Below are positions 8,289-23,329 of a stretch of DNA of 38,876 nt, one piece after another (position 1 is the stretch's first letter; the number at the start of each line of letters is the position of its first letter). The DNA is from Promethearchaeota archaeon (GTDB lineage: Archaea; Asgardarchaeota; Lokiarchaeia; Sigyniarchaeales; SOKP01). The position numbers were made by a program, and so were the translations under genes. The notes under the pieces were generated by a model. The model saw only the letters and a program-made list of their open reading frames with translations, had not been told where the DNA came from and ran no database searches. The stretch lies in the NCBI GenBank assembly GCA_048938025.1, contig JBHLMP010000035.1, forward strand, positions 1 through 38,876. Direction: 5' to 3'.

Positions 8289-8732
8289 TTAAGTCCTTTC
8301 AAAGGATAAATATTTTTTTTGTCTTAAAAATATAGTATTTAATCCAAATTCTTTCGCTTTTTTTCGTAATATGGAATCGTTTGTCGCTAAAAAGATAACA
8401 TAGCCTTCATTTTTTAACTCTATTCCTCTCCTCAGCAAGAAATTGTCTGTAGTTTCATTATCCTTTTTGATTTCATCTAAAAAGGTAATCTCATATTTAT
8501 TTCTATTCTTTTCCAGATAGGAAATTCCTGATTTAAAATCTCTTTGAAATTTTGTTGCATTTGGTTCTCTAACTTGTTTTGCTCCAAGTTCATCTAGAAT
8601 TTGTTTAAATATTATAAATTCTACCCCTCCTTCTAAATTTAATTTAACCTCATTAAGATAGTCCACTTTAAATTGGAATGGAAGAAGAATGAAATTGGAA
8701 TCTAAAATAATTAAATTATGTTTAGATCTCAA
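8289..8732 (-). CDS. PIN-domain ribonuclease (Fcf1/Utp24-like)
   Basis: IILDSNFILLP, ILDEL, TDNFLL, LATNDSILRKKAK and FLRQK motifs. Confidence 0.85.
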   Translation of the reverse strand: MRSKHNLIILDSNFILLPFQFKVDYLNEVKLNLEGGVEFIIFKQILDELGAKQVREPNATKFQRDFKSGISYLEKNRNKYEITFLDEIKKDNETTDNFLLRRGIELKNEGYVIFLATNDSILRKKAKEFGLNTIFLRQKKYLSFERT

Positions 8733-9250
8733 TAGACTTGCCGCTCTAAGATTTTTCTTGTTAATATTCCGAAAGCATTCTCAACATTTTCACCTGTTTT
8801 AGATGATATCTTAAGATAATCAATCAAATTAAATACTTCTAAAAATTCCTTTGCATACTTATCATCTACTTGGATATCATTTTCTAAATCCAACTTAGTT
8901 CCTAAAAAAAGAATAGGTAAATTTGGGTCACCTTTTCGAACAATATTAACCCATTGTTCAAGATTCTCTAAAGTAATTGGTCTTGTTAGGTCAAACATGA
9001 GGAGTGCTCCTTTTGCACCTAGTACATAGCTTTCAAGAAGAAACCTAAAACGTTCTTGACCTCCAAAATCCCAAAGCTGTAATGTGCATTGCTTGGTATC
9101 GATCATAGTCTCTTTGAGGAAAAATTCAACACCTATCGTCATTTTAGTCTCTGCTGAGAATCTCCCTTCCACATATCTATGAAGTAATGTAGTTTTTCCA
9201 ACTCCTCCTTCTCCAGCTGTGAGGATCTTTAGAATGAACTTTTTTGCCAC
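8729..9250 (-). CDS. Rab-like small GTPase (Ras superfamily)
   Basis: GEGGVGKTT, MTIGVEF, WDFGGQERFRFL, GTKLD and SSKTG motifs; no C-terminal Cys prenylation motif. Confidence 0.95.
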   Translation of the reverse strand: MAKKFILKILTAGEGGVGKTTLLHRYVEGRFSAETKMTIGVEFFLKETMIDTKQCTLQLWDFGGQERFRFLLESYVLGAKGALLMFDLTRPITLENLEQWVNIVRKGDPNLPILFLGTKLDLENDIQVDDKYAKEFLEVFNLIDYLKISSKTGENVENAFGILTRKILERQVY

Positions 9251-9997: not shown

Positions 9998-10543
9998 TTA
10001 AGCAAATCTCTGTTTTTCCTTATGTTCTTTCACTGAAATCTCTCTATCACTAAGTCTATTAAGCCTAATTAGACTGTCTGTAATAGATTTAACTTCTGCT
10101 CGAGTTTTTAGTTCAAATTCCAATAGACCTTCAAAAATCTCTTTTTCGGTAAATCCTTTATTGTAAAGTTCCAAAAATTTAGCTATTGTTTGTTCATGAT
10201 AATAAATATACTGTTTGTTTAGAAACGTGATTAACCAATTTTTCTTCTCCTGTTTTTGGGATAAATCAAACATTTTCTCTCTGATTTTATTAACTTTCTT
10301 CTTTAATTTTTTAGCAACTATAATATCTTCAACTCTATAATACTTTTTCATTATCCTTGTTAATCTGGTTTTGAAAAATAAAGCAGGAATATACGATAAA
10401 ATAAAAAAAACAATAAAAATCACAGTTATTACTATAGCAGCTACATATTCTTGATATACGGCTAGAATAATAATTATTAATACAAGAATCCAAAACCAGT
10501 GTCTCAGAATTGTCTTAAAAATAACTATATACTTTTTTGGCAT
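9998..10543 (-). CDS. Hypothetical membrane protein (2 N-terminal TM helices)
   Basis: Two hydrophobic N-terminal segments followed by a charged domain. Confidence 0.75.
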   Translation of the reverse strand: MPKKYIVIFKTILRHWFWILVLIIIILAVYQEYVAAIVITVIFIVFFILSYIPALFFKTRLTRIMKKYYRVEDIIVAKKLKKKVNKIREKMFDLSQKQEKKNWLITFLNKQYIYYHEQTIAKFLELYNKGFTEKEIFEGLLEFELKTRAEVKSITDSLIRLNRLSDREISVKEHKEKQRFA

Positions 10544-10622
10544 GAAAAATATCTAAAAAAGAATAATTCTGTAATATATATTGATATAATAAATGATTTA
10601 AAAAAATTGTTTTTAGTTATTT

Positions 10623-10645
10623 AAAAAAAAGAGATATCTTAAAAA
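10623..10645 (-). terminator. Oligo(U) terminator of the 5S precursor
   Basis: T5 and T8 tracts on the minus strand immediately after the 3' arm of the processing stem. Confidence 0.55.
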
Positions 10646-10661
10646 CCACATAAACAAGCGT

Positions 10662-10812
10662 TTCCGGGTTCCCGAACCACCTCGAAAACAGTTGGTTTTT
10701 CGGATGGGACCGGGTATTTTCCTCGAGTACCATGACCGTGAGCGAACTCACAATTTGCCATTTCCCACTGATCGCAACAGCAGTACTATTGGACAACGTA
10801 AACGAGTTTAAC
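10662..10812 (-). rRNA. rrf: 5S rRNA gene, circularly permuted (3' half 10812-10747, UUCG linker 10746-10743, 5' half 10742-10662 with a 28-nt insert)
   Basis: The reordered sequence folds as 5S: helix I CUCACGGU/AUUGUGAG, helix II GUA..CGAG/CUCG..UAC, helix III CCGG/CCGG with CCCAU..GAA loop C, conserved CCGGAAGUUAA, loop E AGUA/GAA, helix IV CUGCUG/CAGUGG. Length is 119 nt after removing the linker and insert. Confidence 0.88.
10670..10697 (-). other. Candidate 28-nt BHB/BHL intron in 5S loop C
   Basis: Central helix CCGA/UCGG, bulges AAA and GAA, inner helix ACCA/UGGU. Confidence 0.6.
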
Positions 10813-10863
10813 TTCCGGCGCTTAGCTAGCAGCTGATTATGTGGTATTAAAGTATACTAACCA

Positions 10864-10871
10864 TTTTATAA
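10864..10871 (-). promoter_or_regulatory. TATA box for the 5S precursor
   Basis: TTATAAAA on the minus strand, roughly 20-25 nt upstream of the 5' arm of the processing stem (10845). The AT-rich background weakens the call. Confidence 0.5.
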
Positions 10872-10990
10872 GTACGGTTATTTTATTAAAAAATACCTTC
10901 CTATATGGTTATAAGTAAATGAAATAATAAAGACTAGTAATTAAATTTTTTCATAATAAAAGATTAACTTTAAAAGGAATAAATTGAGAG

Positions 10991-11560
10991 GTGTTTGTAA
11001 AGGTGATATTTCAACTGATAATGCAAGATGCACCTTGGTATCAGTATTTAGTAAATATTTTTATTGTAATTATTGGAAGGTTACTTGACATACTTAGTAC
11101 GAGATATGTATCAAAAGAACTTAAACTGGAGACAAATAAATTAGCAAGGCGAATAGGGTGGCGAGGTGTGATAATAATGCAAATTCCTATCATTGTTTTA
11201 GGAGCTCTGGATATTTATCTAGCATTTTTTATCTTTATATGGTCTCTTTTTTTATTTGCTAATAATATTTTGGGAAGCTGGAATACTAAGCAAGTTGGTG
11301 AGGAGCAATATTATGAAGATCTTAAATTACAGTTAAAACAAACTAAGAGATGGCAAATTATTCTAAGCGAAATATCATATCTTTTAACATTTACAGTAAC
11401 AGGGATTTTTATTATCGTGTTCTTATTTGTTTTTAATAATTTCATAGCAATTATCTTCATATCATTAGCGTTAATCTGTCAAGGTCTGCTAACTAGCGTT
11501 AGATCCATGAAATACTTATTTGATTTAAAGAAAGAATCTCAAAAAAATAATGAAAATTAA
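10991..11560 (+). CDS. Hypothetical multi-pass membrane protein
   Basis: Several hydrophobic segments; LDILST...ETN motif. Start may be the ATG at 11021. Confidence 0.75.
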   Translation: MFVKVIFQLIMQDAPWYQYLVNIFIVIIGRLLDILSTRYVSKELKLETNKLARRIGWRGVIIMQIPIIVLGALDIYLAFFIFIWSLFLFANNILGSWNTKQVGEEQYYEDLKLQLKQTKRWQIILSEISYLLTFTVTGIFIIVFLFVFNNFIAIIFISLALICQGLLTSVRSMKYLFDLKKESQKNNEN

Positions 11561-11567
11561 ATTTAGG

Positions 11568-13715
11568 TTAATTTAAACGTTCTATTCGGTCTAAAATACG
11601 TGTATATTTTTTAATCCCATAAACTACAAAAATTACGGAAATTGCTACTATACTTATCATTATAATCAAAGCAATATTTAGCATATAGTTTATTATTGAT
11701 TTAGGAATTTGAAATGTATAAGATTCATTGTAAAAAACATTGGTATTATTAGCATAATCTCGAGCAACGATCATATACGAATAATTACCTGGTTCTAATT
11801 TGTCAATAATAAATTCAAAATTCCTCTCATCTTCTTGAATACTATTCGATAGTCTATAAGATGTAAAATTGTTAAACTGATCCTTAGAAATTAATAAATA
11901 TACACTTTCAATCCCTGATTGATTATCATAAATTTCTATATTGAAACACATCTTATCTGAAACTGAAGGATTTTCTGGAACATACTCTAATCGAGAAAAT
12001 TCAGGTTTATTATCATCTGAAAGCGTAGTAAAGTTAAAGTAAGATGGAATTAAATTGTGCCCTGTAATAGTTACATTGTATGTTTCATTAACTTGTGCCG
12101 GGACACGCAACTTTGCGATACCCTCTTTATTAGCATATGAAGTATAATATTTTCCGTCAGTAGTTCTAAAATGAACTCTCGCATATGGAATTATATTATT
12201 AGAAATGTCTCTAATTTCAATAGAAACTAATTGACCTTCATAAATATTTTGATTAAAGGGATTACCTGCTTTTTTTGGCTTATTAGTGTAGATATCAACC
12301 TCAGGATCCCCTAAAAGACAATAAGTTAATAAATTTTTACGCTCGAAATCATAATAAGTTGCCCCATCTCCTCTTTTATAGTAATCACTATTTATATATG
12401 AAACTTTAGAATCATATAATGCCCTGCCTTGCTGAAACTTTTTTTCTTCAAAAAATTCCTTCCAAAATAACTTGGCATTTCCGCGGTTTAATTTTTCAAA
12501 GTTATAATCATCTTCATAATACCAACTTACTCTAAGTGCTCCAATAAATCCAATTGCACCAGCGCTCAATTGCTTTATTAGAGTTTCTCCAATATTATTA
12601 TCACTATGATCATAACAGGAGGTAGAACAAGCATCTATATAAACTAATGAAGGCATATTAATATTAGAACTTGAACTAGCATCAGCAGACGTATATCCTG
12701 CGGTACTCGGATTACGATAATAAGCTGTTGGGGCTCCATGTCCGGCCATAATGACTGTTGAATAACCATTATTGAACTGATTCCTGAGTTCTATACGTGT
12801 AAGATTTCCTGCTTCTTCTACTAAATGAGTAGAATTCATCTCTAAATTCACATAATTTTGTATAATATAACTTGTTAACCAGCTTTCATATTCTCCATCA
12901 GTTCCATAAACGTGATATTGGGAGATACCTCCTGCTAATAACATTCTATTCATCCAATCATCTAGATAAGGATCCATTTCATATTTTAAAGTCTTATTTA
13001 CCATTATCTCAAGTTCTTCAGCAGTATCAGCAGGAAATCTACCAACATATACCTCTGGAACCCATGAAATTTCATCATACCAATATAAATTATCTTGTGG
13101 AGCTTCCCCCCATCTTGAATCTTCATCACTATTCCAAGTACATAGAAGATCCAAATCACCTGTGAGATCTGCATAATAATAATCTGTAGGTTTGTAATAA
13201 TTATCCATTCCTGAAGCTTCGCTTCCACCATATCTTACAACATCAGGGTTATATACTTCTCTTATAGGAATTAAATCATTTTGAGCATCCCCAGCTAAAA
13301 GAACCCAGCGAATATTTTCTTCATCATAATATGATTTTATCATATTTCGAATCTTTTCGGGGTCATCTCTGCCAGGATAATCCGAAAAATTGCTCAAAAT
13401 TATTGTTTTAACTCCTTTTTCATTTTTCCAATCCGCTAAAGGTTTTAAAGTATCAATAAAATCAGTGTTGTTTGGTGCTATAATTAACATCTCAATTTTT
13501 GGATAATACCAATCATTTTCCAATGATGAATAATCAATTTCAGGTAAAAATGATAAATCAATTTCAGGATTACTGCTATAAAGATTCAGTTCTTCTGAAA
13601 TATAAGAATTATTATAAACAGCAAAGTATTGACTACAACTAAGAAAAATCGATGGAAACAATAAGAATAGAATAATAAATAAATATACAAATTTTTTAGG
13701 AGAAGACCTTAGCAT
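11568..13715 (-). CDS. Peptidase C25 (gingipain family), secreted and C-terminally membrane anchored
   Basis: LADWKNEKG, VLLAGD, PTDYYYADL, VGRFP, catalytic AGHG and DACS, LLGDP; N-terminal signal-like segment and C-terminal TM helix. Confidence 0.9.
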   Translation of the reverse strand: MLRSSPKKFVYLFIILFLLFPSIFLSCSQYFAVYNNSYISEELNLYSSNPEIDLSFLPEIDYSSLENDWYYPKIEMLIIAPNNTDFIDTLKPLADWKNEKGVKTIILSNFSDYPGRDDPEKIRNMIKSYYDEENIRWVLLAGDAQNDLIPIREVYNPDVVRYGGSEASGMDNYYKPTDYYYADLTGDLDLLCTWNSDEDSRWGEAPQDNLYWYDEISWVPEVYVGRFPADTAEELEIMVNKTLKYEMDPYLDDWMNRMLLAGGISQYHVYGTDGEYESWLTSYIIQNYVNLEMNSTHLVEEAGNLTRIELRNQFNNGYSTVIMAGHGAPTAYYRNPSTAGYTSADASSSSNINMPSLVYIDACSTSCYDHSDNNIGETLIKQLSAGAIGFIGALRVSWYYEDDYNFEKLNRGNAKLFWKEFFEEKKFQQGRALYDSKVSYINSDYYKRGDGATYYDFERKNLLTYCLLGDPEVDIYTNKPKKAGNPFNQNIYEGQLVSIEIRDISNNIIPYARVHFRTTDGKYYTSYANKEGIAKLRVPAQVNETYNVTITGHNLIPSYFNFTTLSDDNKPEFSRLEYVPENPSVSDKMCFNIEIYDNQSGIESVYLLISKDQFNNFTSYRLSNSIQEDERNFEFIIDKLEPGNYSYMIVARDYANNTNVFYNESYTFQIPKSIINYMLNIALIIMISIVAISVIFVVYGIKKYTRILDRIERLN

Positions 13716-22051: not shown

Positions 22052-23329
22052 GTGCATTACGTTGATTTAAATTATGAGCCAAATAAAGACGATCTTATTG
22101 TAATGTATTATGTAGAAAAATCTATAGGTTGTAAAACTATACAGCAAGCCTGCGAGGAAATCGCAAAAGAAAGTTCAATTGGAACATGGACAGATATTGT
22201 AACGATGTCTAAGGATATAGCAAAAAGACTAAGACCTTCTGCTTATTATATTGATGAACCTCGGGGATTAGTAAAAATAGCATATACTAAAGATCTCTTT
22301 GAGGGCGACAATATGTCTCAAATATTAAGTGCTATTGCCGGTAACATTTATGGAATGAAGGCATTAGACAATTTAAGACTATTAGATATCTCTTTTCCAA
22401 AAAGTATGGTAGAGGTATATAAAGGACCAAAATTTGGGATAAAAGGGATAAGAAAATTAACAAAAGTAACGGATCGTCCCCTACTTGGCACGATTGTAAA
22501 ACCGAAAGTAGGATTAAATGAAATAGAACACGCAACAGTGTGTGGTCAGGCATGGTCCGGAGGCTTAGATATTGTAAAAGATGATGAAAATTTAACAAGT
22601 ATGACATTTAATAAATTTGAGAAAAGAATTGAGGAAACTTTAAAAATTCGAGACAAAATAGAGATTGAAACAGGAGAGAAAAAGATCTATATGCCAAATA
22701 TAACAGCTCCATTAAGTATCATGAAAAAGAGAGCTGACCATGTTATTGACCATGGTGGTGAATATATAATGCTCGACTTTCTTACTGTGGGATTCTCTGC
22801 ATTACAAGAAATCAGAGATTATCTCGATGATAAAAATATTGTAATTCATGCCCACAGAGCCATGCACGCTGCTCTAACTCGAAATAAAAAGCATGGAATT
22901 ACGATGTTGGCATTATCTAAAATTGTGAGATTAATAGGAATGGATCAACTTCATACAGGTACAGTTGTGGGAAAAATGGAGGGAGGAAAACGAGAAGTAT
23001 TAGAATGTAATGAAATACTAACCGCACAAAAGAATTTTAATAATAATGAAACAATGCTTGACCAAGATTGGGGAAATATTAAACCAACTTTACCTGTAGC
23101 TTCAGGAGGATTGAGTCCATTACATGTTCCAGAATTGATTGATATATTGGGCAAGGATTTAGTATATCAATTCGGAGGAGGTTGCCATGGGCATCCTAAT
23201 GGAACCGAAGCTGGAGCTAAAGCTATTAGACAAGCTGTAGATGCTACTCTACAAGGATTTGAATTAGATGAATATGCAAAAAACAATTATGAATTAGCGA
23301 AAGCAATTGAAAAATGGGGCATAAAGTAG
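22052..23329 (+). CDS. rbcL: Form III ribulose-bisphosphate carboxylase large subunit
   Basis: ESSIGTW, GTIVKPKVGL, DIVKDDENL, HAHRAMHAA, HTGTVVGKMEG, VASGGL and GGGCHGHP motifs. Confidence 0.96.
   Translation: MHYVDLNYEPNKDDLIVMYYVEKSIGCKTIQQACEEIAKESSIGTWTDIVTMSKDIAKRLRPSAYYIDEPRGLVKIAYTKDLFEGDNMSQILSAIAGNIYGMKALDNLRLLDISFPKSMVEVYKGPKFGIKGIRKLTKVTDRPLLGTIVKPKVGLNEIEHATVCGQAWSGGLDIVKDDENLTSMTFNKFEKRIEETLKIRDKIEIETGEKKIYMPNITAPLSIMKKRADHVIDHGGEYIMLDFLTVGFSALQEIRDYLDDKNIVIHAHRAMHAALTRNKKHGITMLALSKIVRLIGMDQLHTGTVVGKMEGGKREVLECNEILTAQKNFNNNETMLDQDWGNIKPTLPVASGGLSPLHVPELIDILGKDLVYQFGGGCHGHPNGTEAGAKAIRQAVDATLQGFELDEYAKNNYELAKAIEKWGIK

Follow-up and report, generated by a model that had tools for sequence, protein, structure and literature searches.

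The window analysed here, that is, the whole stretch of 38,876 nt from a Promethearchaeota (Asgard) archaeon, is AT-rich (about 29% G+C), and a G+C-rich island stands out within it at positions 10645-10845. On the minus strand, this island holds all of the conserved blocks of a 5S rRNA, in permuted order. Nearby lie an aIF2-gamma gene, a gene for a Ras-family small GTPase (8729-9250, minus strand; PF00071, E 1e-42), a peptidase C25 homologue (11568-13715, minus strand), and a homologue of the RuBisCO large subunit (22052-23329, plus strand); the open reading frames that directly flank the 5S gene (9998-10543 and 10991-11560) had no Pfam match.

Read in gene order, the permuted gene starts with GUUAAAC, followed by loop E (AGUACUG), helix V with loop D, and GGGAAA; its middle is a short helix I capped by a UUCG tetraloop (10751-10738); and its end reads ...CGGUCAUGG..., followed by ACCCGG-UCCCAUCCGAA...CCCGGAA, which represents helix III and loop C. 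The island is bounded by the complementary arms of an outer processing stem, CCACAUAA (10844-10837, minus strand) and UUAUGUGG (10653-10646, minus strand). The 5' arm is conserved in 30 related loci, and in one genome (G124) both arms have been swapped for another complementary pair. About 20 nt upstream of the stem, a TATA-like box, TTATAAAA (10864-10871, minus strand), is the putative promoter of the 5S gene, and the corresponding position in related loci reads TTATAAAA, TTATTAAA, or TTATATAA. The T-runs that follow the 3' arm (10645-10641 and 10630-10623) may serve as the terminator.

Inside this stem, leader and trailer supply the two halves of an outer bulge-helix-bulge (BHB) motif. The leader half (10812-10823, minus strand) consists of the helix h strand AAGCG (10823-10819), the central helix H strand CCGG (10818-10815), and the bulge AAG (10814-10812), whereas the trailer half (10656-10667, minus strand) consists of H CCGG (10667-10664), the bulge AAA (10663-10661), and h CGCUU (10660-10656); the H strand of the trailer doubles as the 3' strand of helix III. 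By the canonical rule, the leader cut is predicted between 10813 and 10812, giving a body that starts with GUUAAAC, and the second base of the leader bulge is A, C, or U across relatives, as expected of a base that is discarded. The trailer cut would fall after 10662, at a junction that is visible in RNA.

Between these cuts lie two exons. Exon 1 in gene order (114 nt; 10699-10812, minus strand) runs from the 3' part of the 5S rRNA (the 3' strand of helix II, loop E, helices IV and V, and loop D) via helix I (GUGAG, 10751-10747; UUCG, 10746-10743; CUCAC, 10742-10738) to ...CCGAA in loop C, and exon 2 is a 7-nt micro-exon, CCCGGAA (10662-10668, minus strand), that sits between the 3' cut of the intron described below and the outer 3' cut. 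Helix I (10738-10751, minus strand) has only 5-7 bp in related loci, where it is closed by UUCG, UUAG, UUUG, or UACG, and its stem covaries across relatives (GUGAG/CUCAC, GUAAG/CUUAC, GUAAA/UUUAC).

Once rearranged and spliced, the 117-nt sequence can be aligned over its full length with seven canonical 5S genes of the sister family f2, with identities of 50-62% over 113-116 positions; loops A, C, and E and helices I-V are colinear with the canonical molecule, and the sequence folds as a three-way junction. No Rfam family matched the window at its gathering score, and RF00001 had no match at E<=10 either in the region of the gene or in the whole genome (3.5 Mb, 96.7% complete), as expected for a gene that is both permuted and interrupted; the permuted gene at 10645-10845 is thus the sole recognizable 5S gene of this genome. 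The only Rfam match at E<=10 over 10400-11000, ODC_IRES (17.2 bits, E 4.7), was taken as a chance hit. ARAGORN found neither tRNA nor tmRNA in the window, and RF01959 (archaeal 16S) had no match in the genome.

The permutation extends well beyond this locus. A DNA search of 61 related genomes yielded 30 loci of the same genus with the same permuted gene, and the arrangement is genus-wide (L001-L030 and L043-L061). Two break points coexist within the genus, with homologous leaders and trailers: among 38 loci classed, 21 are of type A, broken between CCCGGAA and GUUAAAC within the 3' strand of helix III; 16 are of type B, broken between ACCCGGUC and CCAUCCGAAC within loop C; and one is partial and unclassable. 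Helix III is palindromic (CCGG/CCGG), and the leader sequence C(C/U)GG pairs with either of its strands; types A and B thus differ by 16 nt that have moved between the two ends of the gene. Outside the genus, 15 stretches were taken from family f4 and from further genera of the host's family, and permuted 5S genes were found in nine of them (L145-L150, L153, L155, and L158, from genera g19-g22 and g25 and from f4), one of these in a higher-G+C member of another family; of the other six, two have canonical-order, bacterial-looking 5S genes and four were not shown by the motif filter. RF00001 scores above its cut-off in 12 of 14 genomes of sister family f2, whose 5S genes are canonical, vs. two of 81 genomes sampled in the host's own family. 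Those two family matches (L157, G092:C68, and L154, G108:C263) are the two bacterial-looking, canonical-order genes among the 15 stretches, with the one in G092 following the apparent end of a 23S gene; the two contigs are probably contaminants of their assemblies.

Loop C of the gene in the window is interrupted at its 3' edge by an insert of 30 nt (10669-10698, minus strand). Genes of the same genus that lack the insert have a 12-nt loop C, UCCCAUCCGAAC, in the context CCGG-UCCCAUCCGAAC-CCGG, and in nine insert-free type A genes CCGAA is joined directly to CCCGG at the exact insertion site; these genes read ...CCGAACCCGG..., apart from G019, which reads ...UUCGAACCCGG... with the same loop length. 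Since the insert-free loop is known, the insert measures exactly 30 nt, not 28. In a geometric scan, the A-run at the site permitted three registers of one and the same hairpin, with excision of 30, 28, or 26 nt, and the cuts of the register that is shifted by one base remove exactly 10698-10669 and restore the loop of the congeners. A group I or group II self-splicing intron was rejected, as there was no Rfam ribozyme match around the gene and the insert has only 30 nt, and no C/D box was seen by eye in these 30 nt.

Within the genus, the insert was found in 12 of 54 genomes (G000, G032, G012, G129, G087, G031, G092, G001, G034, G101, G126, and G124), and its length is 30 nt in all 12; among the remaining genomes, eight matched the upstream flank only and 34 had no match at E<=0.001. 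On a tree of exons and flanks, which is weakly resolved (190 columns), presence of the insert needs four or five changes, at least two of which are forced by well-supported branches. G019, for example, lacks the insert, and its identity to the carriers G101 and G126 is 94.7%. Such patchy presence among close relatives points to gain or loss of the intron between them, as for BHB introns of other genes.

The fate of the insert in RNA was assessed with public sequencing runs, aligned to the locus at 90% likeness or more. The run search returned two sediment metatranscriptomes from two studies (X1 and X2), each sharing a small part of the words searched for, and a third run (X3) that is DNA and whose contig of 1126 nt spans the whole stretch of the gene, insert included. 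Another RNA run, X4, gave no match to the locus, a result that carries no weight in either direction. From X1 came a contig of 137 nt (depth 14.3) and from X2 one of 147 nt (depth 2.0), and each covers exactly 10699-10818, thereby spanning exon 1 in full, with the insert, leader, trailer, and intergenic flanks uncovered. The uncovered insert and flanks prove nothing alone; the evidence lies in the loose ends of the two contigs, which are 14, 17, and 10 letters long and match the locus letter for letter. Beyond 10818 on the plus strand, the contigs continue with the letter of 10668 and then with 10699-10712 (X1) or 10699-10714 (X2); before 10699, the X2 contig reads 10810-10812 and then 10662-10668. 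Written in the sense of the RNA, the sequence is ...GGUCCCAUCCGAA|CCCGGAA|GUUAAAC..., with the letters of exon 2 standing between ...CCGAA and GUU. This shows that the 30 nt are absent from the RNA, that exon 2 is ligated on both sides, and that the permuted ends are joined. Several properties of the records delimit what they say: the junction-spanning sides have 10-17 letters, shorter than the 31 letters that define a bridging record, and no record bridged at that length; X1 and X2 are stored as contigs rather than reads, and contigs drop rare forms, so a minor form with the insert retained or with 28 nt removed is possible.

The RNA comes from close relatives in other sediment samples rather than from this strain, and the alternative that survives best builds on this point: the contigs would derive from an insert-free strain with near-identical exons, and in the organism studied here the 30 nt would be kept or the gene not processed as proposed. 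The four to five gains or losses on the tree and the closeness of G019 to insert carriers speak for such a source. The contigs, however, have only one mismatch each to the exons of G012 (119 of 120 positions identical), whose DNA has the insert, and this is closer than any pair of genes that differ in the insert; all five genomes of the G012 clade (support 100/100) are carriers; and relative to the window, the insert-free type A genes show at least 22 differences over 120 ungapped positions, vs. four or five for the contigs. We therefore consider this explanation unlikely, and read the RNA as that of insert-bearing genes.

A second alternative, already raised by the first-pass annotation, is that the insert is retained as an expansion segment of loop C. 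A preprint reports large rRNA expansion segments in Asgard archaea, and the 30 nt fold into a stable hairpin. Against retention stand the RNA contigs of two studies, in which the insert is missing and the ligated junction is seen, the fixed length in all carriers, and the pattern of conservation, in which the BHB elements are kept and the sequence of the hairpin is free to vary. That pattern was quantified with an alignment of the 12 insert sequences, eight of them distinct. Standard pairs fill 98.3% of the 120 pair cells, and the four central pairs are intact in all eight distinct sequences, one of which has U-G in place of C-G. Four pairs have changed on both sides, namely, three of the five pairs of the inner helix (with the variants AACCA/UGGUU, AUCCA/UGGAU, and AGUA/UACU) and one in a two-pair extension of this helix (10691-10690/10682-10681). 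The observed covariation score was reached by one of 500 shuffles, and pairing dropped to 55-61% when the partners were slid by one column. An expansion segment is thus very improbable, and the annotation's principal proposal, an intron nested in a permuted 5S gene, is borne out by RNA in which the exons are ligated.

The motif that defines this intron is a BHB of relaxed, HBh'-like form. Its central helix pairs the exon strand UCCG (10701-10704, minus strand) with the intron strand CGGG (10674-10671). On the 5' side, UCCG is followed by the bulge A10700 A10699, the cut, and A10698; on the 3' side (10668-10674, minus strand), CGGG is followed by A10670 A10669, the cut, and C10668. Two 3-nt bulges (AAA and AAC) on opposite strands thereby flank a 4-bp helix (UCCG/CGGG). 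The inner helix h' is formed by AACCA (10693-10697, minus strand) and UGGUU (10679-10675), and the outer helix is helix III itself (CCGG/CCGG), which comes immediately after the 3' bulge. The relaxation is on the 3' side, where five unpaired bases (UCCCA) lie opposite the 3' bulge, between helix III and the central helix.

Loose BHB geometry is not rare, with roughly 10-25 matches per stretch of about 220 nt at an inner helix of at least 3 bp, and 24 in the window's own stretch of that size. Geometry alone was discarded as evidence because the loose scan is so prolific. The comparison that matters is more specific: in 200,000 shuffles of the 30 nt, a BHB excising exactly the insert arose in 272 cases with an inner helix of at least 3 bp, and in 43 cases with the observed inner helix of at least 5 bp. 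Excision of precisely the insert by a BHB is thus more than chance would give. Neither the minimum-free-energy fold of the precursor nor that of helix III plus the insert contains the BHB, as the A-run pairs with the U-run instead; folding energy was not used as evidence.

The enzymes for such a reaction are encoded in the same genome, on other contigs. Two splicing-endonuclease paralogues, each with PF01974/PF02778 and 30% identical to one another, have 201 aa (L062:1168-1773, plus strand) and 200 aa (L063:1438-2040, minus strand); inspected by eye, the first keeps a Tyr/His/Lys pattern, and in the second the His of this catalytic pattern is missing, a hint at an enzyme of two subunits. The pair may resemble the heterotetrameric endonucleases, built from a catalytic and a structural subunit, that are credited with accepting relaxed motifs. 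There is also one RtcB (566 bits). Cleavage by the splicing endonuclease is what these observations point to. That the insert is instead removed by another pathway, for example by other RNases followed by ligation, would be compatible with the relaxed 3' side of the motif and with an endonuclease step that is deduced from motif and genes. This pathway has little probability, given that the 3-4-3 geometry is conserved with covariation, that the same cutting rule predicts three other junctions in the gene family, and that the endonuclease and ligase genes are present. The outer BHB bears out the rule in particular: cutting after the second base of each bulge reproduces the junction of a normal 5S sequence in both gene types, which validates the rule for this gene family.

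The choice of register within the hairpin was the main point on which the first-pass annotation needed correction. The hairpin that it had described at 10670-10697 is present on the minus strand, with CCGA (10703-10700) paired to UCGG (10675-10672), ACCA (10696-10693) paired to UGGU (10679-10676), and AAA (10699-10697) and GAA (10671-10669) unpaired; the geometric scan recovered its canonical cuts, which remove 28 nt, and the sizes derived from them (151/147 vs. 123/119 nt) are arithmetically right for that register. The boundaries, which insert-free congeners and RNA place at 10669-10698, have to be moved, and with them the size of the body (121 nt, or 117 nt without the helix I tetraloop, rather than 123 or 119 nt) and the spliced loop C, which had been given as 14 nt against a usual 13 and has the genus-typical 12 nt in the corrected register. 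A GAA repeat at both intron borders makes the spliced product compatible with cuts shifted by up to 3 nt; in G087, where the 3' bulge is AU followed by C, only a cut right before C10668 preserves loop C, and this variant favours the canonical 3' cut site. An excision of 28 nt (10670-10697), after which loop C would read UCCCAUCCGAAAAC, is favoured by the two 3-nt bulges of that register and by its four Watson-Crick pairs (CCGA/UCGG); it is nevertheless the least probable of all the alternatives, as the RNA contigs read CCGAA followed by CCCGG and not the expected junction CCGAAA|ACCCGG, as congeners without the insert have the shorter loop, and as a conserved loop base would change in G087. 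We conclude with good confidence that the loop C insert is a spliced BHB mini-intron of 30 nt in a circularly permuted 5S gene.

These elements can be assembled into a pathway with four cuts and two ligations. The 4-bp central helix would arise in the precursor by pairing of the exon's UCCG with the intron's CGGG, and would be flanked by the bulge AAA before the AACCA/UGGUU hairpin and by the bulge AAC before helix III. The splicing endonuclease would then cut each bulge behind its second base, and RtcB would ligate the resulting exon ends, ...CCGAA and CCCGG... A second BHB would follow after seven bases, formed by the leader CCGG (10818-10815) with 10667-10664 and by AAGCG with CGCUU, such that the intron BHB would lie directly upstream of the outer BHB on the 3' strand; cutting at the bulges AAG and AAA would release the body, whose ends would be joined, ...CCCGGAA to GUUAAAC... 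The predicted product, 121 nt long (10812-10699 plus 10668-10662), would have its parts in the order of an ordinary 5S rRNA, and the UUCG loop would close helix I. The absence of the insert from the RNA and the two ligated junctions are observed; the enzymes that act, their exact cut positions within the GAA repeat, the order of the two reactions, and the lasting circularity of the final molecule are what we infer. With 137 and 147 nt, the X1 and X2 contigs exceed the 121-nt unit, repeat the same letters at both ends, and traverse the ligated junction as well as helix I with its UUCG cap. Such an overlap is what a circular 5S RNA would give, and a mix of linear forms would give the same contigs; considering the intramolecular ligation of the ends, the 4-base closure of helix I, and the self-overlapping contigs together, a circular mature 5S rRNA is our preferred reading.

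Loop C is not the only site of insertion in this gene family. A second 30-nt insert, in loop D, occurs in four loci (L045 of G129, L047 of G031, L054 of G023, and L055 of G010) and displays a full hBHBh' motif, with the central helix UUGC/GCAA or GCAG, an outer helix of 3-6 bp, and bulges of GA, cut, U and AA, cut, U. The cutting rule given above fits this intron as well: excised canonically, it leaves behind the sequence found in relatives without the insert. The loop D insert is identical in G031, G010, and G023, with a related variant in G129; G031 has both the loop C and the loop D introns, and its close relatives G092 and G001 are without the latter. Further inserts of about 30 nt are found after GUUAAAC in L056 (G128) and near loop D in L058/L029 (G028), and in neither did the scan return a canonical BHB (for G028, a partial segment was scanned). 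All four insert types of the genus are about 30 nt long. A broader reading of these data, which we offer tentatively and to which we give somewhat less than even weight, is that the ribosome of this Asgard family carries a covalently closed, circular 5S rRNA of 121 nt, made from a permuted gene by two endonuclease/ligase reactions 7 nt apart, and that mini-introns, uniformly 30 nt long, travel from site to site (loop C, loop D, and others) and from lineage to lineage, as the raw material of new permutation break points.

If the intron is as described, 5S rRNA, the last rRNA thought to be intron-free, joins the substrates of archaeal splicing, with support from RNA. From a practical perspective, standard tools miss the 5S gene across an Asgard family, the permutation explains why these genes seem to be missing, and the grading of genome quality, which requires a 5S gene, is affected accordingly. 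A single gene family combines a permuted gene with a nested intron, a 7-nt micro-exon, and probably a circular mature RNA, and thereby offers a natural system for studying how introns and gene permutation interconvert. Asgard archaea are the group closest to eukaryotes, and the tRNA-splicing enzymes of eukaryotes descend from the same endonuclease.

In the literature outside subscription journals and supplements, no 5S rRNA intron and no permuted archaeal 5S gene was found, and the present case appears to be the first 5S rRNA intron backed by RNA data. BHB introns are established in archaeal tRNA, 16S, and 23S genes, for example in the 16S genes of Thermoproteales (PMC4496867). The loop C intron resembles them in its two 3-nt bulges around a 4-bp helix, in the enzymes that would act on it (splicing endonuclease and RtcB), and in its patchy occurrence among close relatives; some 16S introns are also short and non-coding (PMC4496867). 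It is unlike the known archaeal introns in its host, a 5S rRNA, in its length of only 30 nt without an open reading frame, and in the presence of a second, circularizing BHB 7 nt away.

Permuted tRNAs reportedly also occur in Thermofilum. In Cyanidioschyzon merolae, circularly permuted tRNA genes are expressed via a circular intermediate (PMC4267664, citing Soma et al. 2007); there, as here, the 3' half precedes the 5' half in the gene, and leader and trailer form a BHB through which the halves are joined in their proper order. In the present gene, the native ends are linked by only a 4-nt tetraloop instead of a removable spacer, so re-opening is not obviously provided for. The RNA in question also differs, being a 5S rRNA with an additional intron.

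Among the larger rRNAs, Pyrococcus furiosus has a circularly permuted 23S rRNA whose permutation is post-transcriptional (PMC7758197), and circular 23S rRNA is found in archaeal ribosomes, in a report stating that BHB-driven circularization applies to 16S and 23S "but not 5S rRNAs" (PMC12918454). The 23S cases share with the present one a BHB-dependent circularization that alters the topology of a mature rRNA, and they are unlike it in that the order of the 23S gene is normal, whereas the 5S gene is itself permuted (PMC7758197; PMC12918454).

For 5S rRNA, two further precedents can be compared. Low-level circular 5S species in Sulfolobus and Halobacterium, considered by their authors to be possible degradation steps, share with the present case the presence of circular junctions in a 5S rRNA; they come from genes of normal order, are minor, and are without RT-PCR validation (PMC3326292). 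The permuted 5S rRNAs in mitochondria of brown algae and further stramenopiles likewise have helix I closed as a hairpin and their ends elsewhere. Those molecules stay permuted: their ends lie where the alpha and gamma domains meet, and neither a BHB nor ligation nor an intron is involved (PMC4267664). In the present gene, ligation restores continuity. Set against these systems, the loop C insert is a relaxed BHB mini-intron in a host gene that is new for such introns, and it is nested within a permuted gene.
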